Source: Nemertoderma westbladi
Lineage: Eukaryota > Animalia > Xenacoelomorpha
NCBI GenBank assembly: GCA_032718475.1
Contig: JAUCBJ010004064.1
Span: 1-38,809, forward strand
Length of the DNA stretch: 38,809 nucleotides
Direction: 5' to 3'
Shown here: positions 4,441 to 36,636 of the stretch, piece after piece
Position numbering within the stretch: position 1 is the first letter of the stretch
Layout: each line of letters begins with the position of its first letter
Notes under the pieces: generated by a model
Told to the model about the DNA's origin: nothing
The model's database searches: none
Seen by the model: only the letters and a program-made list of their open reading frames with translations
Translations under genes and position numbers: made by a program

Positions 4441-4539
4441 TGGTACATGTCGCTTATATAGTATAGAAGATATGGGATAGGGTAGGCCTACTTATGAACT
4501 ACAGTTATTGAACGATGAACAAATAATATATGAACTTAC

Positions 4540-4742
4540 AATCGACTTGTCTTTGAAATGAATGCTCGCCTATCCTATAATCAACTCGAAATAACGAAAC
4601 AATTCCATTTGGCTCCGTTGGGGGACCCCAGGATAGCCTCGTAATGTTGTTGCCAAGGTAATCAGTTTGTAAGTTTGTTGGGCTGGAAGGAGGCCCAATT
4701 GGGGAAGAGAAACTTACGGAGGTTGGAGTACTGCATAATGTT
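4540..4742 (-). CDS. FN3 receptor gene exon
   Basis: TTTCCAG acceptor, GTAAGT donor; ...GPPSSPTNLQTDYLGNNITRLSWGPPTEPNGIVSLFRVDY... (FN3 W-x-P-P-x-x-P-N-G motif); phase 2/1 fits both neighbours. Not in the ORF track. Confidence 0.85.
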
Positions 4743-5136
4743 CTGGAAACATACCAAAAAATAATACAAGATATAATAGAGCGGCTTCGCTAAACGCCAA
4801 AAGCTTTTAGTAACTTGGTGGTGATGGATGGATAAATGACACATCCCAATGTTCCTAAAATTGTTTGTAGTGGAACATATATTAATATTTTATATTTATT
4901 GCTGGAAATTCTAAAATAATTGGCGTAATACAGGCCTAACAAAAGGTAGAGTAGGGCATGATTCAATTGGAAAGGAATCAAATTCACACTGACCTGTCGG
5001 ACACATTAATTTATCTAATGATAATTAAAGGTCGTGCGGGACATACTGTCTAACAGGGGCTGTTAAATCTATATAAACAAAATAAACGGGTAAACACGAG
5101 AGTCTTACACTCCAATATGGCGTTGGGTAATCCTTT

Positions 5137-5192
5137 GTCCAGCTGATGAGGTGTCGAGATTACCGCGTACTGGGTCTCAGGCACCGAAACGC
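5137..5192 (+). ncRNA. Hammerhead ribozyme candidate 1 (permuted topology)
   Basis: CUGAUGA 5143-5149; stem II GGUGUC 5150-5155/GGCACC 5180-5185; GAAA 5186-5189; stem III GCGU 5165-5168/ACGC 5189-5192; GUA site, cut after 5169; stem I CUGGGU 5170-5175/GUCCAG 5137-5142. Confidence 0.75.
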
Positions 5193-5197
5193 AACTA

Positions 5198-5376
5198 TAT
5201 TTTTGATAAAATTAATTATTTTTGATAAAATTAATTATTTTTGATAAAATTAATTATTTTTGATAAAATTAATTATTTTTGATAAAATTAATTATTTTTG
5301 ATAAAATTAATTATTTTTGATAAAATTAATTATTTTTGATAAAATTAATTATTTTTGATAAAATTACTTATTTTTG
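5198..5376. repeat. 19-bp AT-rich tandem repeat (TTTTTGATAAAATTAATTA), ~9 copies
   Basis: Seen directly, immediately 3' of the hammerhead core. Confidence 0.95.
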
Positions 5377-6439
5377 CCCTAGTCATATATTTTCTTATAG
5401 AATATAGGCTTAGCTTTTGTGCAGTATATTACCGGTATCAGTTAGTGTATATGGCGGTTAGGCTTAGGGTTAGGGTGCGATACATATCTGTAAGTTAAGC
5501 AGATTTAATATATTTGTGTTTTTTGTTTATGTCGTTTTTGTTTGCATTGTTGGTGGTTTTTGATGGCCCTCGGGCTGAGTACTATTTTGGGTGTAATGTC
5601 CTGACACTACGTGTTTTGTTGGTTTTGTGGGGTGTAAGACTCTAGTGTTTACCTGCTTATTTTTTATATAGATTAATTTTTCTATCGCGGTAACTTGAAA
5701 TAGCATGTAATTTTTAATTATATCAAAAATAGACCCCATATAATATCTGATGTAAAAAAAATTTAAGAATTCCGATGCAAGGAAATTTCATAATTTACAG
5801 TTTTAATGGTAGCGGAGATTTTTCACATTATAATATTAGGTGTAATTGATTTATATTGTTTTACTTTAAAAACCACAATAGTTTTTATTATGTAACGAAT
5901 TCAATTTTTGGTATTTCAGGTAGACAATATCTGATGTTATGTCTGGGTCAATTTCCCTCGTTTAGTTGAGAATTTGTATTAATAAGGTTTCGTTATTGTA
6001 CCACCAGCCAAAAGATAATAAAAGATTAGACAAAGTTGCTCTGGAAATGAAATTTGTAACTATGTAAGCCATCAAATATCAACAAATGTTAGTTACCCTC
6101 ACCCTGTTGAGTAACATTAAATGTTGCTAAGGAGAGAAACATGAAATTAAAAGTATTAATGGTCAGATTTTTTTGGAGCATGTGATTATTGTAATATACA
6201 CAAAATGTACTTACAAATTATTTTTGGCAAATTTGTAACTTTTTATGTCTCTAAGCCATTCTATTATTAATTGTGGTGAATTTAAATTTTGATAGTGAAT
6301 TATAATACAGTCAATGGAAGGAGATAAGGGTGAGTGCTGCAATCATGGAAATATTTTACAATATGATGAGAATGTCGTAATGTAACAACAGCCGGCTATA
6401 TAGTGAGTCGGTTGGAATTGGGTGGAACGTTAATCTCAC

Positions 6440-7288: not shown

Positions 7289-8062
7289 TATCTCGTCTCG
7301 ATGTTCAATTATGAATTTTGCCATATCTGAAGATTAATTTTTTTCGTTTCATTTAAAAATTTTCGAGGGCGTTCATAATTAAATACTATTTAAGTAATAA
7401 TAATTAAGTAGGCCTTAATTCTGCATTGTGTTATCTATCCCATGAAGGAAAATTTAATTTGACGATATATATTTCGTAGTTTCAATAGTTGTAGTGCAAA
7501 CAAGTCAACAATCAACAGCAAGTATTCGCACATTAATTATTGTGTTCTCATTTATGAAGTTAATGTGCTAAAACTCGCTGTTAATACTGAGCAGTTTGTA
7601 CTACATCGTCAAATTAAAATTAGAAAGATGTGTTTCGCCGGAAAAAATCTGAATACGGGGAGGCCAAACTACTGGAAAAGTTGAAAGAGACAGAACCAAC
7701 CCCCATGGTCCCTATTCCAGGAAAGAACACCAATCAGTTCTGCACCCATTGCATCCGAAGTACTAGAACAACATTTCGAGAATCTATTAGGACAGAACTC
7801 AGAAGGAACAGACCAGGTTCGCATCGTTTTAGATGAGGATCGGCTACAAGACCAATGGTATAATCAGCCGATTACAGAGGACGAAATTAAAGAAGCGGTT
7901 CATTCCACGTCAAACAAAAAAGCAAGCGGCCAAGACAGAATCTAAAATGAACACCTAAAACAAATTCTTTCACTGATACTATCCATTCTGGTTTATCTTT
8001 TTAACACTTGCTTCACTATTGCTGTGATAACAACTCTTTGGGCAACTAGCATTATAAAAATA

Positions 8063-8861
8063 TGATTTTTGACAACCACGACTTTAGAGGGATTGTTATA
8101 TTAATATGAAAACAATAAAATAGGACATGGGGTCTTATTCCCTCAGATACTACCTAGCATTTAGGGCCACTTGGGCCACTGTTAGTACTCAGGCACTAAT
8201 AAGGCCCATTAAAAAACAAAATACCAAATCGATTTTAGTGCTACATAGCCCAACCCAACTACCACAAGAAAAATTACACCAAACCATACAGTAACTACAG
8301 GTTCCGGTAAGTATTGCACGAAATAGGCTATCCCATAAATTACGAAAAATATAGGACATTTTGTACGCCAAAAAGGTAAGTCTAAGTAATAAATCTGTTT
8401 GGTTAATCTCTGTTTGGTGGTACGGTAGGATTTCTAATTTATTGGTCATTGTCTTAATTTAGTGGTGCAGTTTTGTTAGGGTAGGGGTGGGGGGGTTCGT
8501 GGCACACTGCTGATGAGGAGAACCCCGAATCCCAGGGTTCAGTGTTTAAATCTCCGAAACCCTTTTATTTTTATAAAATTTATTACTTAGACTTACCTTT
8601 TTGGCGGACAAAATGTCCTATATTTTTCGTAATTTATGGGATAGCCCATTTCGTGCAATACTTACCAGAACCTGTAGTTACTGTATGGTTTGGTGTAATT
8701 TTTCTTGTGGTAGTTGGGTTGAGCTATGTAGCACTAAAATCGATTTGGTATTTTGTTTTTTGATGGGCCTTAGTGCCTATGTACTAACAGTGGGCCAAGT
8801 GGCCCTAAATGCTAGGTAGTATCTGAGGGAATAAGACACCATGTCCTATTTTATTGTTTTT
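8063..8861 (+). mobile_element. 799-bp non-coding insertion with ~285-bp inverted arms, central hammerhead and 12-bp TSD (Penelope-like pLTR derivative)
   Basis: TSD ATTATAAAAATA at 8051-8062 and 8862-8873; arms 8109-8394 and 8578-8860; removing the insert restores the LINE reading 'WATSIIKILYKGKG'. Confidence 0.8.
8504..8563 (+). ncRNA. Hammerhead ribozyme candidate 2 (permuted topology)
   Basis: CUGAUGA 8510-8516; stem II GGAGA 8517-8521/UCUCC 8551-8555; GAAA 8556-8559; stem III AGGGU 8534-8538/ACCCU 8559-8563; GUU site, cut after 8539; stem I CAGUGU 8540-8545/ACACUG 8504-8509. Confidence 0.75.
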
Positions 8862-10500
8862 ATTATAAAAATACTCTATAAAGGGAAAGGTAGCAGGACG
8901 AGTCCCGATAATTATCGCCGTTATTAGCGTGATTGCCAAAATCCTTACAAAAATAATCAACAAAAGGGTACTCCTACACATTTCCCACTTACTTCCACCG
9001 GAACAATATGGTTTCATAGAGGGAAAATCGACCATGCAAGCATTGATAAAACTAATATCAGACATCGCAGAAACACTCAGGAGACCACGTGACTCACCCG
9101 CTAACAAACCCAGGATTATAATTATATGGGCACTCATAGACTTTCACAAAGCGTTTGATTTGGTAGATCGATCTCGACTACTGTATTAAATGTATAATTC
9201 CTTTGGAATAAAGGGAAAACTCTACAATTTAATTGAAGCCCTATTCAACAACCGAGTAAAAATCTTCGATGGAATAAAATTCTCCAAGCTAATTACACAG
9301 CTCCGGGGAATTCTGCAAGGAGATAGTTTCTCACCAACATGTTTCCTTATATTTATAGCGGATCTCGCGTCAGTTCTACGGGGAATTGAGGTTCATATTT
9401 TTTGCAGATGATCTGGTGTTTTATTCGGAAAACAAAGCTGATATTCAAAAAGGCTTTGATGAACTTCAGAAATGACGTATCAAAAACTCAAAGGAAGTGA
9501 ACAAGAAAAACAAAGATAATTAAATTCCGGAATGGTGGACGTTTATCACATTTTGATGTTAATCTATTATGACGGAAAGGAAATAAATATCTACAATAAA
9601 TATGAGTATCTTGGGGTTGTTATGCAACCGTCACTGTCGTTTTCAAAGCACATCGATCAGAAGAAGAGAAGCTTTCTCTGCAATAGGATGTGTAAGACAC
9701 TTGCAACTTATTTCGATCGAAACTGGGATGAAGATATACTCTCTGAAAAAATACCCAATGTTCTGCTACGCTTTTCAAGAAATAGTCCCCCCTTTTTCAC
9801 TCTGACGAACCTCAAAGAACTGGATAAAGTGAAATTTACCTTCCTAAAAGGTCTACTTGGTTTATCAAAATACTCCTCGTCCATCTTAGCTATGAAGATA
9901 GTTGGTTGTAAATCATACGTAGAAGACCTAAAGTTGAAATATCCGGGAATTTTTGATCGAACGGTGTTAGAACAACATAGGTCATATAGACGACAGAGGG
10001 AGGAATCATTTAGCGACAACAACTTCTTAGAAGGACCGGCTTTTACCTCGCAGGGTTGGCGCGCCCCGGGCCAAAGGAACCGGCATCTTATTATGAGGGC
10101 CACCGCCCACGGCTTCCACTGGAAACTATGTAGTGACGTAACGCCATTTCACGAACTGGGTCCAACCTGTTACTGTAAATACTGTGGAGGCAGTGCGAGT
10201 GAGAGATATCACTTATTTAGCCTTAGCTGTGGGTCCCGTCCAGCAGCTGTGGGTCCTTTCCAGTGTCCAGCTCTCTCGGCTCTGGGGAACTCTAAGTGAC
10301 TACAGACCCCTCAGACTACAGACCTCTTTTTAGCAATTTAAATTTAAAATTAATATATATACAAACCTAATATTTTAAATACTCTGATTTTAATTTAAAT
10401 TTAACTGTACTCTGATAAATGTAATTTTAATGTATTAAAGATTCAATTTACCTCGTACGTGCGTCTAGATTTCTCAGAAAAAAAATTAAAATTATATTAC

Positions 10501-10685
10501 CTGGCAACCAATAATCGCCCCACATTAGAGTAACAGCATTCCACACTAGGTTGGTAACGTGTAAGTCAGTGATTGGTTGGGATTCAGTGGAGAATAGATA
10601 GGCTTTCGAGAAAGGGCCCTGTCCGATGGAAGTTGCACCCGAAACACGGACGGAATATTGCGACATCGGTCGGAGTTCCGACAAT
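10501..10685 (-). CDS. FN3 receptor gene exon
   Basis: LSELRPMSQYSVRVSGATSIGQGPFS (classic FN3 C-terminal half) followed by ITDLHVTNLVWNAVTLMW; CATAG acceptor, GTAAT donor; phase 2/1. Confidence 0.9.
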
Positions 10686-11417
10686 CTATGATTATAATAT
10701 TAAATCCTTTTAAATATTACGAGGTATATCTAGAATTCTATAGTTGTACCTGTACCCTATGCATTTGAGCTACTATTAGGGTAGTTTATTAAGGTACTTT
10801 AAGCTATTAAACTGTAAATGGTGGATGTCAACGGTTTGATTGGTTCCGGTATTAATGTGGGGTGATTCGTGAAGTCTAGGTCGAACCTTTGTGTGACACG
10901 ATATAATTAGTGGATCGTTTGTCGCCGTTGCCAATGTTTGAACACTAACAAGTCAGTGAATCTTTAATGAAGTGGTACCAAACTTGGTACACAAGTAAAA
11001 GTCTTAAGAAATTTAGAAATTATACACGCAGTCTTATATATAGTTCCTCTTTCGGCCGCTAGGGGACGAATTACAAGAAACCTAGAAAATGCTATATAAT
11101 TATAGGACCAACCATCATTTTAAATTAGGTAAGAGTCAGGCCTGTTCCACTTGTATTGATATACAGTACAAAGGCTTATCCTGGTTCGTAGTGCGCGAAG
11201 GCCGACGAACATGAAACTGGAGCATTAGCTATTTATATTGTCTTTATGTTTTTCTGTGTAGGCTATATATACTGTATATTTACTTGTGTTGTTATGTGCG
11301 AAGGGAACAAGACAAATTGTGCCAAATGACAAACAACTAAACCATTAACTAAGTCCATTTCAAATCGTTATGTATTTTAATGTGTCAAAATACAATGTAG
11401 TCAATAGGGTTACGTAC

Positions 11418-11767
11418 CTGTATTGTTGATCTGGATAAGTGACTGGTTGACTATCGTTACAAACTCTTTCCTCCACATAACCAAATGGCCCAAAACGGCA
11501 GCATTTAACAATGTATTCTAGAATAAATCCATTCCGATTTCCGAAAGGAATGGTATCCCATAGAAGAGATACAGAGCGAGAAGTTAATGACGTCACCCGT
11601 AGGCTTATGGGAGGCCCGGAGGGGCGTCCCTCCGGTAACCACACAGTCAGCCAATCAGAGAATCCCCTCTTCCCGGATGGATTAACGGTTTCCACGGTTA
11701 CATTATAATCTAAACCACCAGTCAAATGTCGAATCCTTAGATGCGTCGATGTCAACGGTACTTTTTC
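11418..11767 (-). CDS. FN3 receptor gene exon
   Basis: LTGGLDYNVTVETVN...PEGRPSGPPISLRVTSLTSRSVSLLWDTIPFGNRNGFILEYIV; TTTATAG acceptor, GTACGT donor; phase 0/2. Confidence 0.9.
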
Positions 11768-11910: not shown

Positions 11911-14900
11911 CAAGTAATAAGTAATATTATCTAATCCTTACCTTAAACTCTAATCATATTCATGTAATCCAAGTAATAAGTAATATTATCTAATCCTTAC
12001 CTTAAACTCTAATCAGATTCCTGTAAACCAAGTAATAAGTAATATTATATAATCCTTACCTTAAACTCTAATCATATTCATGTAATCCAAGTAATAAGTA
12101 ATATTATCTAATCCTTACCTTAAACTCTAATCATATTCATGTAATCCAAGTAATAAGTAATATTATCTAATCCTTACCTTAAACTCTAATCATATTCATG
12201 TAATCCAAGTAATAAGTAATATTATCTAATCCTTACCTTAAACTCTAATCATATTCCTGTAATCCAAGTAATAAGTAATATTATCTAATCCTTACCTTAA
12301 ACTCTAATCAGATTCCTGTAAACCAAGTAATAAGTAATATTATCTAATCCTTACCTTAAACTCTAATCATATTCATGTAATCCAAGTAATAAGTAATATT
12401 ATCTAATCCTTACCTTAAACTCTAATCAGATTCATGTAATCCAAGTAATAAGTTATATTATATAATCCTTACCTTAAACTCTAATCATATTCATGTAATC
12501 CAAGTAATAAGTAATATTATCTAATCCTTACCTTAAACTCTAATCATATTCATGTAATCCAAGTAATAAGTAATATTATCTAATCCTTACCTTAAACTCT
12601 AATCATATTCCTGTAATCCAAGTAATAAGTAATATTATCTAATCCTTACCTTAAACTCTAATCAGATTCCTGTAATCCAAGTAATAAGTAATATTATCTA
12701 ATCCTTACCTTAAACTCTAATCAGATTCCTGTAAACCAAGTAATAAGTAATATTATCTAATCCTTACCTTAAACTCTAATCAGATTCCTGTAATCCAAGT
12801 AATAAGTAATATTATCTAATCCTTACCTTAAACTCTAATCATATTCATGTAATCCAAGTAATAAGTAATATTATCTAATCCTTACCTTAAACTCTAATCA
12901 GATTCCTGTAAACCAAGTAATAAGTAATATTATCTAATCCTTACCTTAAACTCTAATCAGATTCCTGTAATCCAAGTAATAAGTAATATTATCTAATCCT
13001 TACCTTAAACTCTAATCAGATTCCTGTAAACCAAGTAATAAGTAATATTATCTAATCCTTACCTTAAACTCTAATCAGATTCCTGTAAACCAAGTAATAA
13101 GTAATATTATCTAATCCTTACCTTAAACTCTAATCAGATTCCTGTAAACCAAGTAATAAGTAATATTATCTAATCCTTACCTTAAACTCTAATCAGATTC
13201 CTGTAAACCAAGTAATAAGTAATATTATCTAATCCTTACCTTAAACTCTAATCAGATTCCTGTAATCCAAGTAATAAGTAATATTATCTAATCCTTACCT
13301 TAAACTCTAATCAGATTCCTGTAATCCAAGTAATAAGTAATATTATCTAATCCTTACCTTAAACTCTAATCAGATTCCTGTAATCCAAGTAATAAGTAAT
13401 ATTATCTAATCCTTACCTTAAACTCTAATCATATTCATGTAATCCAAGTAATAAGTAATATTATCTAATCCTTACCTTAAACTCTATAATCAAATTCCTG
13501 TAATCCAAGTAATAAGTAATATTATCTAATCCTTACCTTAAACTCTAATCATATTCATGTAATCCAAGTAATAAGTAATATTATCTAATCCTTACCTTAA
13601 ACTCTAATCATATTCATGTAATCCAAGTAATAAGTAATATTATCTAATCCTTACCTTAAACTCTAATCATATTCATGTAATCCAAGTAATAAGTAATATT
13701 ATCTAATCCTTACCTTAAACTCTAATCATATTCATGTAATCCAAGTAATAAGTAATATTATCTAATCCTTACCTTAAACTCTAATCATATTCATGTAATC
13801 CAAGTAATAAGTAATATTATCTAATCCTTACCTTAAACTCTAATCAGATTCCTGTAATCCAAGTAATAAGTAATATTATCTAATCCTTACCTTAAACTCT
13901 AATCAGATTCCTGTAATCCAAGTAATAAGTAATATTATCTAATCCTTACCTTAAACTCTAATCATATTCATGTAATCCAAGTAATAAGTAATATTATCTA
14001 ATCCTTACCTTAAACTCTATAATCAGATTCCTGTAATCCAAGTAATAAGTAATATTATCTAATCCTTACCTTAAACTCTAATCAGATTCCTGTAATCCAA
14101 GTAATAAGTAATATTATCTAATCCTTACCTTAAACTCTAATCATATTCATGTAATCCAAGTAATAAGTAATATTATCTAATCCTTACCTTAAACTCTAAT
14201 CAGATTCCTGTAAACCAAGTAATAAGTAATATTATCTAATCCTTACCTTAAACTCTAATCAGATTCCTGTAAACCAAGTAATAAGTAATATTATCTAATC
14301 CTTACCTTAAACTCTAATCAGATTCCTGTAATCCAAGTAATAAGTAATATTATCTAATCCTTACCTTAAACTCTAATCAGATTCCTGTAATCCAAGTAAT
14401 AAGTAATATTATCTAATCCTTACCTTAAACTCTAATCATATTCATGTAATCCAAGTAATAAGTAATATTATCTAATCCTTACCTTAAACTCTATAATCAG
14501 ATTCCTGTAATCCAAGTAATAAGTAATATTATCTAATCCTTACCTTAAACTCTAATCAGATTCCTGTAATCCAAGTAATAAGTAATATTATCTAATCCTT
14601 ACCTTAAACTCTAATCATATTCATGTAATCCAAGTAATAAGTAATATTATCTAATCCTTACCTTAAACTCTAATCAGATTCCTGTAATCCAAGTAATAAG
14701 TAATATTATCTAATCCTTACCTTAAACTCTAATCAGATTCCTGTAATCCAAGTAATAAGTAATATTATCTAATCCTTACCTTAAACTCTAATCATATTCA
14801 TGTAATCCAAGTAATAAGTAATATTATCTAATCCTTACCTTAAACTCTAATCAGATTCCTGTAATCCAAGTAATAAGTAATATTATCTAATCCTTACCTT

Positions 14901-17900
14901 AAACTCTAATCAGATTCCTGTAATCCAAGTAATAAGTAATATTATCTAATCCTTACCTTAAACTCTAATCAGATTCCTGTAATCCAAGTAATAAGTAATA
15001 TTATCTAATCCTTACCTTAAACTCTAATCAGATTCCTGTAATCCAAGTAATAAGTAATATTATCTAATCCTTACCTTAAACTCTAATCATATTCATGTAA
15101 TCCAAGTAATAAGTAATATTATCTAATCCTTACCTTAAACTCTATAATCAGATTCCTGTAATCCAAGTAATAAGTAATATTATCTAATCCTTACCTTAAA
15201 CTCTAATCAGATTCCTGTAAACCAAGTAATAAGTAATATTATCTAATCCTTACCTTAAACTCTAATCAGATTCCTGTAATCCAAGTAATAAGTAATATTA
15301 TCTAATCCTTACCTTAAACTCTAATCAGATTCCTGTAATCCAAGTAATAAGTAATATTATCTAATCCTTACCTTAAACTCTAATCATATTCATGTAATCC
15401 AAGTAATAAGTAATATTATCTAATCCTTACCTTAAACTCTATAATCAGATTCCTGTAATCCAAGTAATAAGTAATATTATCTAATCCTTACCTTAAACTC
15501 TAATCAGATTCCTGTAATCCAAGTAATAAGTAATATTATCTAATCCTTACCTTAAACTCTAATCATATTCATGTAATCCAAGTAATAAGTAATATTATCT
15601 AATCCTTACCTTAAACTCTATAATCAGATTCCTGTAATCCAAGTAATAAGTAATATTATCTAATCCTTACCTTAAACTCTAATCAGATTCCTGTAAACCA
15701 AGTAATAAGTAATATTATCTAATCCTTACCTTAAACTCTAATCAGATTCCTGTAATCCAAGTAATAAGTAATATTATCTAATCCTTACCTTAAACTCTAA
15801 TCAGATTCCTGTAATCCAAGTAATAAGTAATATTATCTAATCCTTACCTTAAACTCTAATCATATTCATGTAATCCAAGTAATAAGTAATATTATCTAAT
15901 CCTTACCTTAAACTCTATAATCAGATTCCTGTAATCCAAGTAATAAGTAATATTATCTAATCCTTACCTTAAACTCTAATCAGATTCCTGTAATCCAAGT
16001 AATAAGTAATATTATCTAATCCTTACCTTAAACTCTAATCAGATTCCTGTAATCCAAGTAATAAGTAATATTATCTAATCCTTACCTTAAACTCTAATCA
16101 TATTCATGTAATCCAAGTAATAAGTAATATTATCTAATCCTTACCTTAAACTCTAATCATATTCCTGTAAACCAAGTAATAAGTAATATTATCTAATCCT
16201 TACCTTAAACTCTAATCATATTCATGTAATCCAAGTAATAAGTAATATTATCTAATCCTTACCTTAAACTCTAATCATATTCATGTAATCCAAGTAATAA
16301 GTAATATTATATAATCCTTACCTTAAACTCTAATCATATTCATGTAATCCAAGTAATAAGTAATATTATCTAATCCTTACCTTAAACTCTAATCATATTC
16401 ATGTAATCCAAGTAATAAGTAATATTATCTAATCCTTACCTTAAACTCTAATCATATTCATGTAATCCAAGTAATAAGTAATATTATCTAATCCTTACCT
16501 TAAACTCTAATCATATTCATGTAATCCAAGTAATAAGTAATATTATCTAATCCTTACCTTAAACTCTAATCATATTCATGTAAACCAAGTAATAAGTAAT
16601 ATTATCTAATCCTTACCTTAAACTCTAATCATATTCATGTAATCCAAGTAATAAGTAATATTATCTAATCCTTACCTTAAACTCTAATCATATTCATGTA
16701 ATCCAAGTAATAAGTAATATTATCTAATCCTTACCTTAAACTCTATAATCATATTCCTGTAATCCAAGTAATAAGTAATATTATCTAATCCTTACCTTAA
16801 ACTCTAATCATATTCATGTAATCCAAGTAATAAGTAATATTATCTAATCCTTACCTTAAACTCTAATCATATTCATGTAATCCAAGTAATAAGTAATATT
16901 ATCTAATCCTTACCTTAAACTCTAATCATATTCCTGTAATCCAAGTAATAAGTAATATTATCTAATCCTTACCTTAAACTCTAATCATATTCCTGTAATC
17001 CAAGTAATAAGTAATATTATCTAATCCTTACCTTAAACTCTAATCATATTCATGTAATCCAAGTAATAAGTAATATTATCTAATCCTTACCTTAAACTCT
17101 AATCATATTCATGTAATCCAAGTAATAAGTAATATTATCTAATCCTTACCTTAAACTCTAATCATATTCCTGTAATCCAAGTAATAAGTAATATTATCTA
17201 ATCCTTACCTTAAACTCTAATCATATTCATGTAATCCAAGTAATAAGTAATATTATCTAATCCTTACCTTAAACTCTAATCATATTCATGTAAACCAAGT
17301 AATAAGTAATATTATCTAATCCTTACCTTAAACTCTATAATCATATTCCTGTAATCCAAGTAATAAGTAATATTATCTAATCCTTACCTTAAACTCTAAT
17401 CATATTCATGTAAACCAAGTAATAAGTAATATTATCTAATCCTTACCTTAAACTCTAATCATATTCCTGTAATCCAAGTAATAAGTAATATTATCTAATC
17501 CTTACCTTAAACTCTAATCATATTCATGTAAACCAAGTAATAAGTAATATTATCTAATCCTTACCTTAAACTCTAATCATATTCCTGTAATCCAAGTAAT
17601 AAGTAATATTATCTAATCCTTACCTTAAACTCTAATCATATTCCTGTAATCCAAGTAATAAGTAATATTATCTAATCCTTACCTTAAACTCTAATCATAT
17701 TCCTGTAATCCAAGTAATAAGTAATATTATCTAATCCTTACCTTAAACTCTAATCATATTCATGTAAACCAAGTAATAAGTAATATTATCTAATCCTTAC
17801 CTTAAACTCTAATCATATTCCTGTAATCCAAGTAATAAGTAATATTATCTAATCCTTACCTTAAACTCTATAATCATATTCCTGTAATCCAAGTAATAAG

Positions 17901-18363
17901 TAATATTATCTAATCCTTACCTTAAACTCTAATCATATTCATGTAATCCAAGTAATAAGTAATATTATCTAATCCTTACCTTAAACTCTAATCATATTCA
18001 TGTAAACCAAGTAATAAGTAATATTATATAATCCTTACCTTAAACTCTAATCATATTCATGTAATCCAAGTAATAAGTAATATTATCTAATCCTTACCTT
18101 AAACTCTAATCAGATTCATGTAATCCAAGTAATAAGTAATATTATATAATCCTTACCTTAAACTCTAATCAGATTCATGTAATCCAAGTAATAAGTAATA
18201 TTATCTAATCCTTACCTTAAACTCTAATCATATTCATGTAATCCAAGTAATAAGTAATATTATCTAATCCTTACCTTAAACTCTAATCATATTCATGTAA
18301 TCCAAGTAATAAGTAATATTATCTAATCCTTACCTTAAACTCTAATCATATTCCTGTAAACCA
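11911..18363. repeat. 59-bp intronic satellite array, ~109 copies
   Basis: Unit CAAGTAATAAGTAATATTATCTAATCCTTACCTTAAACTCTAATCA(T/G)ATTC(A/C)TGTAA(T/A)C, with occasional +2-bp variants. Confidence 0.98.
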
Positions 18364-18508
18364 AATTTACAGGAATCCGGATAAAACTAACAGGTTAAAA
18401 ATTCAAACATAAATTAGCTCTTCATCACCAGAAACATTTTTCAAGAAGGACTAACATTCAACGTCAATAATACCTCATCATACATTTTGGTTTACTCATA
18501 AATCTTAC

Positions 18509-19394: not shown

Positions 19395-21365
19395 ACGAAA
19401 ACGGGCGAAAAAGTTTGAAATGTAGAGAAAACAGACGAAAATAGTAAGATCGTTTAAAAATTACCACCAGATGAAAATAACTATTATTCTACATTTAAGT
19501 AGGTGTTATAATAAATTTAAAATTTAGTTGCATTCATTATAATCACCAATAGGCCTATAAGATTACTTTCTTCTCTACAATACCCACGACCTCCGAGAGA
19601 TGTGAATTCAATGCGACCACTACACCAAGGTGGAACCTATTACGGGTGGAACCAACGGTTGCCTTACAACCGTTGGTGCTGCTAGGCCTATCGCCTATCA
19701 GCTTATACAAATTCAAGGTAGGCCCTAATTACCAATAGCCTCTAGACCAGTGCCTTGGCAGTGGATTAATTATTACAGTGTACAGTGGACCGTGGGATCT
19801 TTAGACCTACTACTGTAGGCCTACTACTACTTACTACTGTACAACAATCAACACTACTCGTGTACGCAAATTTCCAATTGGGGAGTCGTTTCAGCCCTCC
19901 CATAGGGTTAATGTTAAATTAATATTGAAAAATTAGTGCAATTGAAGGCTTAATCAAACAGCTTAAATGTAAAATACAAGTAGCTCAGAATAAAGTAGTA
20001 CGATTTATTAAAGACTACAAACCCAGACACCACCTACCAGCCTACTGTAACTCAAGATGACTTCTCCGAACTTAACTTATATAGTAGAGTTAAGCAGCTA
20101 CGCCTTAACCGTGTGCTCGTGTGCATAAAGTGTCCCAATTACCTACAACAAAAGTAAAGAAAGCAGGTACGCCTTAACCATGTGCATAAAGTGTATAGGG
20201 GGCGGGGCCTAATGGTAAGTGTCCCAATAACCTAAGACAAAAATTCAACAGTACGCGATACACACTCTTACAGTACAGAGCTAGTGCTTCAATTATTTAC
20301 CTTTCGAATTGTAAATCCTTCGAAACTGATACTTTCTTTTTTAACGGTATTTACGTAATTATTTAAGTTTTATAATTTGTAATTTGTTCATAGTTACATA
20401 TTTATCTTTGAGTCGGAGTATTGTCTCGGTAAAGGTGAACGTAGTGTAATTACGTTTTATATTTGTTTTAGGTTAGTGTAGTAATTGTGATTTTGTAATA
20501 TTATATATGTAACCAAGTAACATAAAGGACCCCCTTGGAAATAAGCTGCAAAGCTTTAGGGTAATCCTATGTTATGTTGGACAATGCCTACTGTAGGCCT
20601 TTATACATTGTTTGGTGTATTTGTTATTGTTTTTACATAATGTATAAATAAATTTATCTATAAATAGCCTAGAAGTAAAAATTTTACTGTAAACTGTGTT
20701 CCTAAATTTATTTTATAGTTCTGGTTAGAAAAAGTTGGCATTAATACCTTCTAAAAAGGTACCTTAAATGGTGAATAGACCTATCGAAATTAAACATGTC
20801 GCGAAATTAAGTTAATATGTTAAAATCTGAAACGACATCCAAATTGGTAATATGCATACCGGTGTGCCAATGCGTTAGCATTGAATTTATTATTATTTCA
20901 GTACAGCGTACAGCGCAGTACATTACAAATTTGGATGTCCTTTCAGCCTATTTTAACATATTAATTTAATTTCACGAATATTTAATTTCAATATTCAACA
21001 TTTAAGGTACCTTTTAAAGGAAAGTAGGAGGTTATAAAGGCAGGCTTTTCTAACCAAAACAAACTAATTTTAGGAACACAGTACAGTAAAATTTGTACTT
21101 CTAGGCACTAATTTTTCATTATTAATTTAACATTAACCCTATGAGAAGGCTGAAACGACACCTTGGAAATTAGCCACCGGTACATGGTTCGCAATAACTG
21201 TGTTATTATAATCTTAATTTGGCGACATGGTATAAGCAACAAAATTTTAAATTCATTATAACACGTAGTTAAGTTTCATATTTATTTTCACCTGGTGGTT
21301 ATTTTTAAACGATCTAACTATATTCGTCTGTTTTCCCTACATTCAAGTGTTTTCGCCTGTTTTCA
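19395..21365. mobile_element. Old foldback (long inverted repeat) element with an interrupted left arm
   Basis: Right arm ~20920-21365 is the imperfect reverse complement of left-arm pieces ~19395-19535, ~19865-19939 and ~20667-20851. Confidence 0.75.
19940..20666 (+). mobile_element. 3' end of a CR1/L2-group LINE inserted in the foldback arm
   Basis: LKCKIQVAQNKVVRFIKDYKPRHH resembles post-RT LINE ORF2 sequence; ends in an AATAAA/AT-rich tail where arm symmetry resumes. Confidence 0.6.
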
Positions 21366-21588
21366 TGATCTACAGTAGTACCGGTTCCGGTACTAACAAT
21401 TTTTTGCTATTTGTATGAATTATACTATTGTTTGTTTTTTTTGCAATGTCTAAAGTGATTGACATTTACCTTATTTTCTCTCTATTTATTTATCAAAGAT
21501 ATCGGTAATTAAATAAGTGTCCTGGTAGGCCTAATGTGGTTGGTACGTGTATTTAACTCTGACTGATATAATATAATAATTGACAAAA

Positions 21589-22191
21589 ATGGATAATCTC
21601 AACATAATAATAGCGTTATTTCTATGTGTGAACTTCATTCACGCAGTTTATGGAGCCGTAACTTGTGAAGAAGGTTTCACGATTGTAGTTAAATCGGACA
21701 ATTCCAAAATACAGGAAGTTACGCAACAGATGTTTGATAATTTATCAACTCAATTGCCGAAGACAACTAATGATAATTGTGGGAAGTGTATGGCAATGTC
21801 TATCCTATTCGGTGGAAAGATGAAGGATGCTGATGTCAACGTCGCTATGTCAACGTCATTTGTTATGTGTTTGCCAGAAGAGGTTGTGGATATGTGCAAA
21901 CCTCTTACTGAGGACCAATGTCCTGGAAAAGGTGTTGACGAAATTCCTCTCGCAAAAGCCATACAGGGTATGGTAGAGGATTTGAAGCCCCAGTATGAGG
22001 ACCCTCAGGTAGCATGCCAGTGGGAATGTTGTGATGGAGCGTGCGATACCAAATGGAATAATAATCCTTTCGGAGCTGATGGGGAAGTTAATTGGAGTAG
22101 CTCTTTCTTAACCGGTGGGGCCCCTGGCAACGCAATATATATTTGTCTGGTGGTTGCCATGGTTGCACTCGGAGTACTGTTCCAGAACTAG
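21589..22191 (+). CDS. Secreted, probably GPI-anchored Cys-rich protein, Ly6/uPAR (three-finger)-like, 200 aa; nested antisense in an FN3 intron
   Basis: AAAATGG start context; N-terminal signal peptide (NIIIALFLCVNFIHAVYG); ~10 Cys in the mature part ending in ECCDGACD; small-residue region then a hydrophobic C-terminus with no cytoplasmic tail. Confidence 0.8.
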   Translation: MDNLNIIIALFLCVNFIHAVYGAVTCEEGFTIVVKSDNSKIQEVTQQMFDNLSTQLPKTTNDNCGKCMAMSILFGGKMKDADVNVAMSTSFVMCLPEEVVDMCKPLTEDQCPGKGVDEIPLAKAIQGMVEDLKPQYEDPQVACQWECCDGACDTKWNNNPFGADGEVNWSSSFLTGGAPGNAIYICLVVAMVALGVLFQN

Positions 22192-27704: not shown

Positions 27705-28637
27705 TCAGTAAAGTAGAATCCGCTTCTCTACGGCTTTGCGGCATATCGGACACTCGTTCATTCGGTCGCCACACAGCTGACAGGCCCCGTGGCCGCACAG
27801 AAAGATCATGTTCTTTATCCGGTCGAGACAGACGGGACACATTGTCTGCTCCTTAATGTCCTGGAGCTGCTGCTCGAGCTTCCGTACGTCCGACGAGTTC
27901 TCCACGAGCAGGGCCCCGGGGGCCAACTGGTCGCCGGCGTCGGACCGCAGCTGGGCCGAGTTGTTGAGAGGCGCCACGTTGGATGGCGGCACAGCGGCGG
28001 CGTTTTGGGCGGCGCCGCAGCACACGGACAACGGGACCATGGCCTCGATCTCGGTGCGGCACTGGACGCACTTCTTCATGAGCACGGCGCAACCGTCGCA
28101 CGCGCACATGTGGCCGCAGGGCCGGAACAGGACGCAGGCCTTCCTGTCCGAACAGACGACACACTCCTCGATGGGCGTCCGACTGCGCACCGCCTCCTTA
28201 CAAATCAAACATTTCTTTACGCGCGAGGCACACAGCGAACACGTAGCAACGTGTCCGCACGGACCAATCAGAGTGTCCCGTTTCAGGTCGGAGCAGACCA
28301 TGCACTCATCCAGCCCTGCAGCAGCCTTCTCATTGCTATTCTTCTCCGGAGGCCCGTTGTAACTGTCGCTGTTCCGATCCTTGTGACACTTGACGAGCGC
28401 CTTGCACAGGTTAGGATCCGGACACAAGTCCAACGGGGTCTGGTTCTTTTTGTTCTTTATGTTGAGGTCGGCGCCGTTGGCCGCTAGGAAACACGCGATG
28501 GACGCGCTGGACTTTTTGTCCGCGCCCTGGGAACCCAGACCCATGAGCAGTTTACCCACGTCCTGCATATCCTGCAGCTGCCGCAGTTGGCTCAGGGTGT
28601 GGTGTCTGAGGGCCTCGTGTAGGGGGGTATCCCCGTC
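27705..28637 (-). CDS. mib1: mind bomb 1 exon 3 (last ankyrin repeats and three RING fingers)
   Basis: TTCTCCTAG acceptor; [26 protein letters not shown]...[44 protein letters not shown]. Confidence 0.96.
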
Positions 28638-28755
28638 CTAGGAGAACAAATCGTTAATATAATTAGCATTTTAACATACGGCTTACCTCCCGGCGGGGAC
28701 TTCTCTTATTGGTAAAATTTAATTAGCAACGCGGTATATTAATATAGCAGCTTAC

Positions 28756-29703
28756 CTTATCCTGTATATCCAACCGACAGCCCTGTCTCACTAACAACCT
28801 CACTATCTGCGTATGTTGTCTCTCCACCGAGAGATGCAACGCCGACTGTAGGTTCCCATTCTGTATGTTCACGTCGGCCCTCCCCAGATGGACCAACAAC
28901 TCCGCGACCTCGCAATGATTATTCAACGAGGCCAGATGCAACGCGGTGTAGCCGTCGTCTTTAGGCTCGTCCACCACCCAGGCTCGCGGCAACTTAGCCA
29001 ATAGTATCCGAACAGCCGAGGGGTTGCCGCGCAACGCGGCGTGATGCAACGCGCAGAAGCCGTTGTTATTGGTGAGTCGCATATCGGCGTTGTAATCCAG
29101 GAGTAGTTGAATCATATCCTCTCGTTTCTTGCTGATGGCGTCGTGTAACGGAGTGTCGCCCTCGTTGTCCTGGAGACTGGGCAGCGCGCCCAGCACTAAC
29201 AGCTGCTTGACGACGCCCACGTGGCCCTTATTGACCCCGATATGGAGCGCGGTCTGTCTGCGTTTGTTCCGGGCGTTGAGGTCGGCCCCGGTGCGACTGA
29301 GCAGCTCGATGACTGCGGGCTCGTCCCCGAAGGCCGAGTGGTGCACGGCTCGGTCCCCGTCCCGATCCTCGATCTCCAACTCGACCCCGTGACGGATGAG
29401 TCCCCGCACGACCTCGATGTGGCCGTTCTGGGAGGCGGCTTGCAGCGCCGTGTGGCCCGCGAACACCCCGTTGGGGTCCGCGTCGCTCCGGCCCAACAAC
29501 TCCTCGACCCTCCCGCCGTCCCCGTTCGCCGCCGCTTTCACTAAATCCTCGTTAACGTCGCCCGTCACGTGCGTCTCGAATAGTTTCTTTAGCAGCGCCG
29601 AGAGTCTCTCGCTGCTGTTCGATGCGCTGGTAGCGCCCGCCTCTGAGTCCACACGACTAACGGCTCCCGGGTTGTAAGTCCAAGACGTTCCGCAAACTTC
29701 CAC
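28756..29703 (-). CDS. mib1: mind bomb 1 exon 2 (end of second Mib repeat and ankyrin repeats)
   Basis: [12 protein letters not shown]...[13 protein letters not shown]...; AG acceptor, GTAAGC donor; 948 nt, phase 0/0. Confidence 0.96.
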
Positions 29704-31524
29704 CTTTATAAGGGAAATAATAAAATAATTAACTAAGTCGTATAATTCACTCTTAATGCGAAATAATATCAAACTGAGAGGCAATTTAAACAGAAAACTA
29801 TCCTGGATGTCGGAAGAGCCGATGAACGGATGAACCTGTTACAAATACAGCGATGGAGCGGCATATTGATTATATCCATGTTTGGTCATTATTAAAAAAT
29901 CTAACAATAATTTTAGGCTGCAAGTTGTTCGATGTGAGGTTGGAATTGTTCACGTTGAATATTGCATTGATGTAACACTGACTGTATATATATATATTAT
30001 AAAAAGTTGTTTTACAGACTGGTATTACTTTACGGCATTACAGTGGTAGACGACCTACGAATAATATATACGACATTAAGGGGAGGGACATACAAGGGGG
30101 ACTTAACTTAACACCTATATATATAGAGGTAGTGAAGAAAAATTTAATAGCTGTTCATTGTGCTTATCAAATTCCCCTTAAAAAGAGCTTTCGAATGATA
30201 TATGTTTGTTTATAGATTTTGAAACAAAAATTGTTTTGACGAAAATCCCATCTTAAGTTTGGCCACTTTTAGTGATTGTTACCGGCTATAGGGGGAATAT
30301 AATATAATACTTCTAGATAGATACCAATTTAGTTTCCAGAGCAACGGAAATTTGTCTAATAATTGAACCATTTTTAATACCAATGTTGCTGTTACAATAT
30401 AAGGACCTTATTTACACAACTTCTCTACTAAACGGGTGGATGTAACCTCGCCAATCGGATTTATCGACCTCAAAAACCCTTATCCCCAAAAAATGTATTT
30501 GTTATATGATAAACTATTGTGCTTTTCAAACGAAAACAAATAAATAAATTACACCTAAAATCAATAGAGCAATCACATTTTAATTATGTGAAAAATCTTC
30601 ACTAACATTAATGGAAATTATGAAATTTCCCTGCAGTGGAAAATTGTATAATTATTTTACAACGGTTTCCTTAATATAACGTGAAGTTTTTGATATATTT
30701 AAAAATTTTATGCGACTTCTAGTTACCGAGATATAGCAATTAATGTGTAACACGCCAGTTTAAATATTACTAATTTCCCATTGAATCACAGCTTATTGTG
30801 AAATTAATTAAATTATTCTGGAACGTCACCAATTTGCCACTTACTTTTCCCTACTGTTCCTTTTGTTTGGCTTGTGTTAAGCAAATTTACGCAGAATTTC
30901 CATGAATAAACATATGATCCGCAAAATAAAATTATATAGACTTTTTTTGGTCATTTATAAGGTAATATAGAATCCAAAATATGTGGTTCGGATTAATTGC
31001 GAAATACTTATGGGTTTTTTGCTAGATTGACTTGACTATAAGTCATCTGATGATGTGGCAGATCTAAATAAGGAATACGATCAGAATCGACAGCATGGAG
31101 AATAACAAAGTATCAGGATTTATAGCTATAAAATAAATGTATAGTAAAAACAATTTTAATGAATGACAAAGTATCAGGATTGATAGCTATAAATGTATAG
31201 TAAAAAACAATAATGATGTTGATAATTAATGTTGAAATGGTGAAAATGTTGATAATTTGGAAATTTGTTTTTGAATTCTCCATTGTATTATACTGTATAT
31301 TGACTACTTTTTCTGTATCTGTTTTTGTGCTTTTATCCATTAAGTCTCATTTCAAACGTCATACTTATCTACTTTTACAGCTAATCTGCTAAAGAAATAT
31401 TTCGTTTTGAGGTTAACAATTGAGTGAAAGAATATGTAATATAATGTTGGATGATATTATCTTTCTGTTGTACAGTAAAATTTATTTTTGCAATTGATAA
31501 CAACCTTGTTGGTCCGACCGAGGT

Positions 31525-32955
31525 TGCATCATGTACCGAAGGGAAAACAACACCTTGTGGGGGTGCATCATGTACCGAAGGGAAAACAACACGTTGTGGG
31601 CGTGCATCATGTACCGAAGGGAAAACAACACCTTGTGGGGGGTGCATCATGTACCGAAGGGAAAACAACACCTTGTGGGGGTACATCATGTACCGAAGGG
31701 AAAACAACACCTTGTGGGGACACGTGCATCATTTACCGAAGGGAAAACAACACCTTGTGGGCGTGAATCATGTACCGAAGGGAAAACAACACCTTGTGGG
31801 CGTGCATCATGTACCGAAGGGAAAACAACACCTTGTGGGGACACGTGCATCATTTACCGAAGGGAAAACAACACCTTGTGGGCGTGAATCATGTACCGAA
31901 GGGAAAACAACACCTTGCGGGCGTGCATCATGTACCGAAGGGAAAACAACACCTTGCGGGCGTGCATCATGTACCGAAGGGAAAACAACACCTTGTGGGG
32001 GTGCATCATTTACCGAAGGGAAAACCACACCTTGCGGGCGTACATCATGTACCGAAGGGAAAACAACACCTTGTGGGCGTGAATCATGTACCGAAGGGAA
32101 AACAACACCTTGCGGGCGTGCATCATGTACCGAAGGGAAAACAACACCTTGCGGGCGTGCATCATGTACCGAAGGGAAAACAACACCTTGTGGGCGTGAA
32201 TCTTGTACCGAAGGGAAAACAACACCTTGCGGGCGTGCATCATGTACCGAAGGGAAAACAACACCTTGCGGGCGTGCATCATGTAACGAAGGAAAAACAA
32301 CACCTTGTGGGGGTGCATCATGTACCGAAGGGAAACAACACCTTGTGGGGGTGCATCGTGTACCAAAGGGAAAACAACACCTTGTGGGCGTGCATCATGT
32401 ACCGAAGGGAAAACAACACCTTGTGGGCGTGCATCATGTACCGAAGGGAAAACAACACCTTGTGGGCGTGCATCATGTACCGAAGGGAAAACAACACCTT
32501 GTGGGCGTGCATCATGTACCGAAGGGAAAACAACACCTTGTGGGGGTGCATCATGTACCGAAGGGAAAACAACACCTTGTGGGCGTGCATCATGTACCGA
32601 AGGGAAAACAACACCTTGTGGGCATGCATCATGTACCGAAGGGAAAACAACACCTTGTGGGCGTGCATCATGTACCGAAGGGAAAACAACACCTTGCGGG
32701 CGTGCATCATGTACCGAAGGGAAAACAACACCTTGTGAGCGTAGGTGTACGGACATTTCCGACCCGGACAATTCCGACCCATGAAAATTTAATTAGACCC
32801 TTGGCTTTGAATGGGTCGGAATTGTCCGGGTCGGAATTGTCCGGATCGCAATTGACCGGGTCGGAATTGTCCTAACTTCGTGGGCATGCATCATGTACCG
32901 TACAACACCTTGTGGGGGTGCATCATGTACCGCAGGGAAAACAACAGCTTGCATG
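31525..32955. repeat. 39-bp minisatellite (TGCATCATGTACCGAAGGGAAAACAACACCTTGTGGGCG), ~31 copies plus 2 degenerate units, in mib1 intron 1
   Basis: Seen directly; interrupted at ~32744-32878; generates the long spurious repetitive ORFs. Confidence 0.97.
32744..32878. mobile_element. Small MITE-like element built from inverted 15-bp subrepeats
   Basis: Two GGACAATTCCGACCC-like units face four GGGTCGGAATTGTCC-like units; the 39-bp array resumes after it. Confidence 0.65.
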
Positions 32956-33853
32956 GATGAACAATGTCTTAAAAAGGATTCGATAATAATAATTGGTAAT
33001 AAAAGACTTAAATTAATTGAAACAAAGGTTTGCCAAAAAGCTTTTGGAGAAGTTTTTTGGACTTTTTGGAGATACTGGGTTTTGGCATAAATCCAAATCC
33101 CAATATCTCCAAAAAGTTTCATACCAAAACCCAGTATCAACGACTATGCCTCATTTCATGAGTAATAATTAAATTCTTGGAAATAGATTCCTGTTTTTTA
33201 TTGGTTGGCTAAATTAACCAATGGCTTCCCTTGGTTCTGACAAATTTTGGGTTCATTTCATAGCTTTGATCATCAATCGCAGAAGGTCCAAAGTCTTTTG
33301 CGTTTTTCTCAAAATGAAAAATTTGGGGATACTGTGTTTTCGAATGAAAGGGCCGTGCAAGTGCGGAGCTATTTTGGATCGGCTAGCCTTTAGTGCGGAG
33401 GCTATAAGTTGAGCACCGGTGCTGAAATACATAAGCCGTTGTCATATGACCTCTATATGACACATATATATTTTTTGGGTTTGAGCACCAGTGCACAATC
33501 CGCACTGCACTAGTACCAGTGCGGATTGAGCGCCGGTGCTCAATATTTCCACTTATATATATGGCGGGATTTTTAAAATTCCCAAAGATTACCTATTATT
33601 TGATTTAGTTCATTAATTAATTAATTAATCGATAGTTAAGCAATAACTGTCTAATGTTTACTTTTTATATGTTAATGTATATTGCATGAGCAAATGTGCT
33701 GTTGTAACAATAACAATGTTATTTCATATTGTTTTACTTTCTGAATGTTTTTAAATTTTAAAACCCAAATGAATGATGGGGGGGGGGGGGGGGGTTGGGG
33801 TGGGGGTCGTTAAACTCTAGATTATCTACTACGCCCAGCCCATACACAAGCAT

Positions 33854-34160
33854 GGACCCAAGGGAGGGGAGGCTATGGGGCTACCCCCGGACCCAAGGGA
33901 GGGGAGGCTATGGGGCTACCCCCGGACCCAAGGGAGGGGAGGCTATGGGGCTACCCCCGGACCCAAGGGAGGGGAGGCTATGGGGCTACCCCCGGACCCA
34001 AGGGAGGGGAGGCTATGGGGCTACCCCCGGACCCAAGGGAGGGGAGGCTATGGGGCTACCCCCGGACCCAAGGGAGGGGAGACTATGGGGCTACCCCCGG
34101 ACCCAAGGGAGGGGAGGCTATGGGGCTACCCCCGGAACCAAGGGAGGGGAGGCTATGGGC
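33854..34160. repeat. 35-bp G-rich minisatellite (GGACCCAAGGGAGGGGAGGCTATGGGGCTACCCCC), ~9 copies
   Basis: Seen directly. Confidence 0.97.
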
Positions 34161-35020
34161 AGATGGGGCTAGTAAAATAATAAAAAAATTTGAAAATTTT
34201 TGATGAAATTCAAACCACTAACCCAGGACGGGAAGGAGCTAATGAGATGCGGTTTTTTCCAAGGTGGCTCTCCATTGTTTTATGATATTGAATTTGAGCA
34301 CCGGTGCCCAAAGACATTCCCACAAAATGTAATTAGCAAAAAGTAAATTGTTGAGCACCGGTGCACAATCCGCATTTGAGGAACTACACAGGAATGTTCA
34401 CCGGTGCAAAATCCGCACTAACTAAACGCCAATCCTCAAATACTGCCGCAGTCATGGAACAGCACGTGGTTGTTCACTGGTGCAAAATTCACAGTAACAA
34501 AGAACCAGTGGTTTCGGAGCCGCAGCTAACGTGTTAACAGTCTATACAAAAACCAATTCTTCTTTCCGATCTTGATAAATGCCTTCCCCACGCCCACACC
34601 ACCCCAATTCAATACAGTTTTTAACTTTAATACTTTTTCTTTACTTTTACTACTTTTACTTTAATATTTAGTTTATATAGATTTTATATACCAGGCAATA
34701 CAGACCCAAAACTAAACAAAAGATTAACCAATTTGCGTAATTTGCGTTACGTAATTTAAGGACCTTTTAAAATCACGTAACGCTTTTTTGTATGGACTAA
34801 TTTTGGACAGGCTATATAGTTTATTCCCATTGGCAGCTCAAATATGATGCTATGATAATGACTGAGATTGCCACTGAATGCCATTCCATCTCCACCAGAT
34901 GAACTTAAAGTTTTTAGATTGGGCATTGTAGGGTTTCAACCACGATCGATTTTCAACTGATGTTGATTTCAACTGATTGAAGAAGAAACTTTAAGTAAAT
35001 TAGAAAGGTTAGCGACTCAC

Positions 35021-36154: not shown

Positions 36155-36636
36155 TACATAGCACGTTTTGCTTTATAATTTAGGAACAGTCAGACAGTGA
36201 CATAGTAGGCCCCCTACAGTAGTCAGGTAGTACCGGTAGCGGTAAGTACCGTACGATGTGCCCCCTACCGGTCAGCCGGTAATAAAATCCAGAAATCACT
36301 CAATTTTAACCAAGCAGCCAAGCCCAAAAGAACCCAACTGACACCCAAGTTATAGTTCATATGCGTACCTCTGGTATTTTCGTATTGCAAAAATAAGACT
36401 ATAAGTATGAAATACCCTATGTTGTTGAGATATTGTTTATTGTTTTGGTTAGAAAAGCCCACCACTGTTGACTCGTAACCTGCTCCTTTCCGTTAATTAA
36501 GTAGGGCCTAATGGAGATTAGTTTATTTATTGTTTTGGTTACTGGGTTAGAAAACACCACCACTGTAACCTGCTTCTTTTGCCAGAGGTACGCATATGAA
36601 CGATAACCGACACCCACTTTCACCCAACTGCCCAAC

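Follow-up and report, generated by a model that had tools for sequence, protein, structure and literature searches.

Positions 8492-8563 on the plus strand of the window (the whole stretch of 38,809 nucleotides analyzed here) carry a type-CSG hammerhead ribozyme sequence with a fourth helix. The sequence is part of a high-copy repeat, E1, whose insertion was likely the work of a Penelope-like, probably Naiad-related, reverse transcriptase; self-cleavage is predicted after U8539. We assign this reading a probability of roughly 0.8. The four helices, their strand order, a second ribozyme in the window, the insertion anatomy, and the many copies are direct observations. The E1 feature is a new member of a known, sparsely populated ribozyme type, the architecture of which has already been published; what it adds is a likely home among Penelope-type retroelements and a broader covariation.

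Block order and helices of the E1 hammerhead

A first-pass annotation had named the hammerhead segments of E1, and every one of them was confirmed by a segment check and a descriptor search. Block C (8504-8521) comprises the 5′ strand of stem I, the CUGAUGA core (8510-8516), and the 5′ strand of stem II. Block S (8534-8545) comprises the 3′ strand of stem III, the GUU site, and the 3′ strand of stem I, while block G (8551-8563) consists of the 3′ strand of stem II, GAAA (8556-8559; GAA at 8556-8558), and the 5′ strand of stem III. Stems I (8504-8509/8540-8545), II (8517-8521/8551-8555), and III (8534-8538/8559-8563) have six, five, and five Watson-Crick pairs, respectively, and the linkers are 12 and 5 nt long, the latter (8546-8550) leading from stem I to stem II. 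At the site, U16.1 corresponds to position 8538 and H17 to U8539. An intact hammerhead core with stems I-III cleaves 3′ of H17. By this analogy the E1 RNA is predicted to be cut between 8539 and 8540. The pseudoknotted hammerhead with a predicted cut after 8539 that had been proposed in the first pass is supported.

In both window copies, CUGANGA, GAAA, and the NUH site are each directly flanked by stems I, II, and III, as in a hammerhead of any type. The block order is C-S-G in both and not one of the circular orders of types I-III (C-G-S, G-S-C, and S-C-G). The proposed noncircular permutation therefore stands, the descriptor giving the order core, site, GAAA, but it is not the new topology that was considered possible: the same order was described as type CSG by Eckert et al. 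2023 (PMC10085705), and two natural examples of it cleave.

The descriptor accepted all six block orders on both strands, with at least four Watson-Crick pairs per stem and a span of at most 100 nt. It matched the window twice, both times in the order C-S-G (cores at 8510 and 5143), and 1000 block-wise dinucleotide shuffles of the window yielded no match, whatever the order. One weak S-C-G alternative (stems I, II, and III of 4, 5, and 3 pairs with a G-U; site at 8421) appeared under loose descriptor settings only. Rfam returned no match in the window at gathering score, presumably because its hammerhead models use circular orders. This silence, together with the lack of a folding z-score signal (see below), would suit chance complementarity in repeat-rich DNA. 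That explanation is refuted by the empty shuffles and the second instance: two independent four-helix instances occur in 39 kb against none in 1000 shuffles, and none of the 127 pattern-matched control loci listed passes the CSG descriptor, which leaves chance with next to no probability. The control loci stem from narrow pattern scans of viral contigs (2 and 0 loci), metagenomes (at least 120), and bacterial and archaeal genomes (5). The metagenome pattern recovers both window ribozymes but would miss the nematode Naiad forms discussed below; given the narrow patterns and a metagenome count that is a lower bound, the zero among these loci is no evidence of absence.

The fourth helix, P, pairs 8492-8499 with 8526-8533 in E1 (8 bp, one G-U), and an equally long helix was found in 37 of 20,000 random 20-mers. 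Its 3′ strand abuts stem III without a spacer, and the helix is formed in the nested fold of 8488-8568. The 12-nt stretch ahead of block S had been labeled a linker; its length is right, but most of it is the 3′ strand of helix P. The upstream GUU (8495-8497), put forward earlier as an alternative cut site, falls within helix P, has no stem I partner, and gives no descriptor match; lacking that partner, it was rejected as the place of cleavage. Helix P had gone unnoticed in the first pass, as had the second hammerhead and the mobile-element carrier.

A second hammerhead and covariation of the helices

The second type-CSG hammerhead returned by the descriptor (5126-5192, plus strand) is situated 3.4 kb from the first, in element E2. 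Its helix P (5126-5132/5158-5164) has 7 bp, compared with 8 bp in E1 (11 in the family form), and 587 of 20,000 random 20-mers reach such a helix. Stem I (5138-5142/5170-5174) has 5 bp, stem II (5150-5155/5180-5185) 6 bp, and stem III (5165-5168/5189-5192) 4 bp; the core is at 5143-5149, the linkers are 9 and 5 nt long, and the site is GUA, with a predicted cut after 5169. Directly behind this ribozyme, a 19-bp unit is repeated 9.4 times (5198-5376). In DNA runs X2 and X3, one contig each has about one such unit at this place, and the array in the window therefore looks like a local expansion.

Comparison of E1 and E2 reveals that all four helices are kept while their letters differ throughout; each has a spacing of 16 nt between the base that follows the site and GAAA. 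The eight nematode Naiads discussed below, read by eye, likewise keep the four helices with different letters; this helix covariation is read from examples and not from an alignment statistic. Within the families, one change favors helix P (8525, E1) and one possibly acts against it (5162, E2).

Insertion anatomy of the carrier elements

The E1 ribozyme belongs to a sense copy of the element (8395-8861, plus strand) with a family 3′ end near 8860; in other copies, the family sequence extends about 22 nt upstream of 8408. Adjoining the sense copy is an inverted, 5′-truncated copy of the element's 3′ part (8097-8394, minus strand; 94.6% identical to 8578-8873), and outside this inverted arm there is a one-sided "tail" of about 35 nt (8063-8096). 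The left and right copies of a 12-bp target-site duplication are at 8051-8062 and 8862-8873 (plus strand). E1 interrupts a decayed non-LTR-type reverse-transcriptase element on the plus strand (7685-10299, approximate ends), which includes an RVT_1 match at 8869-9186 (E 5.8e-07) and the reading frame of which repeats IIKI on both sides of E1.

E2 (5005-5679, plus strand), also a member of a multi-copy family, is organized similarly, with a tail of about 53 nt, an inverted arm of 49 nt (5066-5114), and a sense copy (5115-5671). A paralogous site without the insertion, near 30738-30745, confirms its 7-8-bp duplication (5005-5012 and 5672-5679). The 3′ bodies of E1 and E2 align weakly (score 160, compared with 122 ± 9 for shuffles and a maximum of 154 among 200). 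A MITE was considered and rejected, the arms being asymmetric.

For Penelope-like elements (PLEs), Craig et al. 2021 (PMC8557442) describe insertions with an inverted 5′-truncated copy and a one-sided tail of 30-40 bp. Both E1 and E2 have such a copy adjoining the sense copy, and the joints vary in other copies; the tail of E1 is within the stated range and that of E2 is longer. A PLE reading frame (reverse transcriptase plus GIY-YIG) was found in none of the 60 of 83 window frames that were scanned, as expected of truncated or non-autonomous copies. Hence, the Naiad link rests on the shared ribozyme layout and the anatomy, not on sequence homology, and on balance we lean slightly toward calling the carrier Naiad-related. 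Non-LTR retrozymes do not describe these elements, which are single units with C-S-G order and not head-to-tail tandems with a type I hammerhead; no end-to-start joint is listed among the E1 contigs, which can miss one.

The absence of a PLE protein from the scanned frames, and long inverted arms that resemble terminal inverted repeats, would also fit acquisition of the ribozyme by a fold-back DNA transposon or by an element dependent on a LINE. We consider such a carrier unlikely, in view of the asymmetric arms with a tail on one side only, the arm lengths (about 295 nt in E1 vs. 49 nt in E2) and inversion joints that vary among copies, the duplications of 12 and 7-8 bp, and the fact that no poly(A) end was seen. 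Insertion by a Penelope-like reverse transcriptase is thus the preferred origin.

Copies of the two families in DNA runs

Contigs from four DNA runs (three studies, one organism) were matched to E1 and E2. The E1 family is represented by 437, 225, 156, and 18 contigs per run. Three runs give a summed ribozyme depth of 14,000-41,000 and the fourth gives one of about 400, compared with a depth of some 15-30 for flank-bearing contigs; summed depth is no copy number, and we roughly place the copy number on the order of a thousand. The family has a sharp 3′ end at 8860 followed by diverse flanks, and three other opposite-strand joints occur in other copies. Among the few contig pieces examined, the starts are scattered, and one contig of the family from run X4 runs on for 246 nt.

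The only difference listed within 8492-8563 is C to A at 8525, at full depth in all four runs. An A at this position adds three pairs and extends helix P to 11 bp, the common family form; the window copy of E1 therefore has a private mismatch in P. It also differs from the family by three extra G residues at 8489 and a G at 8485. Among the 34 substitution rows of E1, 32 fall in 8602-8821 and one in the ribozyme. Since 8408-8491 also has only one row, the quietness of the ribozyme is not specific and is weak evidence of selection.

The E2 family is multi-copy in all four runs (10, 25, 11, and 5 contigs). Its main form in X4 has A to T at 5162 (552 of 699 in depth), which breaks a P pair unless the partner has also changed. 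A minor T to A at 5160 is seen in X2, and the family includes a subfamily with other changes.

Surroundings in the window

Weak fn3 matches on the minus strand (4508-4789, E 0.002; 10451-10699, E 2.6e-05; 11363-11767, E 1.1e-05) suggest that E1 and E2 are inside an intron of a minus-strand fn3 gene. Both ribozymes are antisense to this gene and would not cut its transcript. Further along, a Mind bomb (MIB1) gene (27708-36172, minus strand) has three long open frames (MIB_HERC2/ZZ/SH3, ankyrin, and RING). The MIB1 exon shows 66-76% identity to proteins of many animals, which marks the host as an animal; the best 120 of 641 matches include none with a nematode name. In a tree of 53 rows, including 52 of these best 120 proteins, it forms a long branch among animal MIB1 and belongs to no supported group. 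A 203-residue frame (21580-22191, plus strand) has a weak Tubulin_C match (E 0.00026).

The window is also rich in repeats. A 59-bp satellite (11911-18364) comprises 109 copies with 97% matches and a strong C skew, and further tandem arrays have units of 32, 35, 39, and 26 bp. Two further units with inverted repeats are probably fold-back or DNA elements: one is nearly palindromic over about 840 bp (37963-38809), and the other has arms about 1.8 kb apart (19397-21364); the hammerhead descriptor found nothing in either.

Folding and a model for cleavage

The nested fold of 8488-8568 holds helix P and stem III, with pair probabilities of 0.57 and 0.83, respectively. In this short construct, P and III form neighboring hairpins whose loops carry the strands of stems I and II. 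The nested-folding z-scores of -0.30 and -1.22 give no stability signal. With longer flanks the probability of helix P in E1 drops to 0.00-0.26, and the G-rich upstream stretch folds onto the 3′ strands; when the 3′ half of E2 is included, P and III are near 0, and stem II and part of stem I are favored. Folding programs cannot represent the pseudoknots and, consequently, these values neither prove nor exclude the proposed structure.

These data bear on whether the window copy is itself active. The family ribozyme may be real and this particular copy an inactive relic, decayed and prone to misfolding: the difference at 8525 costs three P pairs, three extra G residues at 8489 and a G at 8485 are present, the 3′ strands are taken up by the G-rich stretch in longer constructs, and E1 is antisense within the probable fn3 intron. 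Against this, neither the core nor stems I-III are damaged, P still has 8 bp, and the short construct folds both P and III. We view the relic as possible, though doubtful.

In the model that we propose, helix P would close first, with stem III next to it without a spacer. The hairpin loops of P and III would then pair through stems I and II, rebuilding an ordinary hammerhead core in which P substitutes for the loop I-loop II contact, and the RNA would be cut after 8539. Such cutting might trim or release the element RNA from read-through, longer, or tandem transcripts, as for the type I hammerheads of other PLEs. Cleavage need not be required for insertion, since both window copies keep a whole, uncut ribozyme. 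This fits the report of Frangieh et al. 2024 (PMC11167929) on a Poseidon hammerhead, which requires the element's protein for cleavage and is dispensable for insertion in vitro.

The ribozyme could instead act in trans or as a dimer, with block S of one RNA joining blocks C and G of another. Minimal PLE hammerheads cleave as dimers, which lends this scenario some weight. Moreover, P joins stem III without a spacer, an arrangement that according to Eckert et al. (PMC10085705) is difficult to reconcile with the crystal structure. However, each kissing helix has just 5-6 bp, the linkers match those of CSG-1 and CSG-2, which cleave during transcription, and the conserved spacing of 13-16 nt would fit an intramolecular constraint. 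A dimeric mode of action hence appears improbable, and the intramolecular fold is preferred.

Type CSG in Naiad elements

Naiads were reported without canonical hammerheads by Craig et al. (PMC8557442), eight being flagged "HHR_half_core" with halves 35-50 nt apart, and it was argued that ribozymes are perhaps dispensable or parasitic there. In all eight nematode Naiad consensus sequences of that study, a complete CSG ribozyme with helix P can be recognized by eye (unscripted), in the 3′ UTR, either following the reading frame or close to the 3′ end. The pairs counted by eye for stems I-III plus helix P are 6/5/12/11 in Ppac and Parc, 5/5/11/12 in Nbra-1, 5/5/6/about 13 in Nbra-2, 5/4/6/9 in Nbra-3, 6/5/11/15 in Hcon, and 5/5/7-9/16 in Hpol. 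In Asuum (name inferred from file order), stem I has 6 pairs, stem II has 5 after a one-base bulge, stem III has 6 + 5, and P has 10. The site-to-GAAA spacing is 13-16 nt across the published CSG ribozymes and the nematode Naiads, as counted by eye. Four of the eight nematode Naiads are flagged in PMC8557442, Parc, Nbra-3, and Hpol as half-core and Nbra-2 as core.

No CSG ribozyme was seen in the non-nematode Naiad passages of the same source, which were Lpol and Ptep whole and others (of 46) around core-motif matches or record ends. In several of these, by eye, GAAA is upstream of the CUGANGA half, and in at least two the order is S-G-C-like, GAAA being preceded by two additional bases. The Naiads with GAAA upstream raise the possibility that Naiads may carry at least two different rearranged hammerheads.

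The nematode Naiads resemble E1 and E2 in having CSG and P upstream of the 3′ end, an inverted truncated copy, and a one-sided tail. They differ in that Naiads encode a GIY-YIG domain (N-terminal, with a CxC motif) and a PLE-type reverse transcriptase in a single open reading frame, whereas E1 and E2 have no reading frame. Penelope-type retroelements are the likely natural home of type CSG. With somewhat less assurance, we suggest that CSG is the standard ribozyme of one Naiad branch, occurring in all described nematode Naiads and, with copies on the order of a thousand, in two or more families of this animal genome, and that animal elements of this kind are the source of the soil CSG sequences in the literature. 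If true, the ribozyme "missing" from Naiads is identical with the "homeless" CSG permutation.

The two new families and the eight readable Naiad examples, in which every helix has different letters, provide type CSG with the covariation and the biological setting that it lacked. The published view of Naiads changes in that the nematode branch, at least, keeps a ribozyme whose form escapes type I descriptors, and genome-wide surveys limited to types I-III will undercount. The set also offers natural substrates for the structure of a doubly pseudoknotted hammerhead and allows testing of the hammerhead's role in Penelope retrotransposition.

Comparison with known hammerheads

The type I hammerheads of canonical PLE pseudo-LTRs and animal non-LTR retrozymes (PMC11167929; bioRxiv 10.64898/2026.07.22.740005) share with E1 and E2 the core within a PLE-associated, non-coding, multi-copy unit. 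Their block order is C-G-S in contrast to C-S-G, and retrozymes are tandem arrays whereas E1 and E2 each consist of one unit with inverted arms. HRIMA-1 and its variants, the type-SGC hammerheads (PMC10085705), differ from E1 and E2 in having the order S-G-C and are located on contigs with hairpin ribozymes. As far as the sections consulted go, the retrozyme preprint (bioRxiv 10.64898/2026.07.22.740005) treats type I only and PMC13725137 merely cites the hammerhead permutations. Within the literature searched, the term "type-CSG" occurs in Eckert et al. (PMC10085705) only, and nothing was found that links CSG to Naiads or any retroelement, subscription journals being mostly outside the search.

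Eckert et al. (PMC10085705) named six block orders, including C-S-G as type CSG. Five CSG sequences, two of them unique, were reported from soil metagenome DNA, in the text consulted without an associated ribozyme or element, and the evidence for their biological relevance was rated as weaker, with just two similar sequences available. CSG-1 and CSG-2 cleave site-specifically during transcription, at 0.004 and 0.026 per min. Like E1, they have the C-S-G order and an 8-bp helix formed by an upstream strand with loop II just before stem III. They also share with E1 and E2 stems of 5-6 bp, a short A/U-rich linker joining stem I to stem II, and a site-to-GAAA spacing of 16 nt, and their linker lengths match those of E1 (12/5) and E2 (9/5). 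On the other hand, the site is GUC in CSG-1 and CSG-2 and GUU or GUA in E1 and E2, all helix sequences are different, and the spacer between P and stem III is 2 nt in the former and absent in the latter. The setting differs as well: CSG-1 and CSG-2 come from soil DNA without context, whereas E1 and E2 are high-copy animal repeats.
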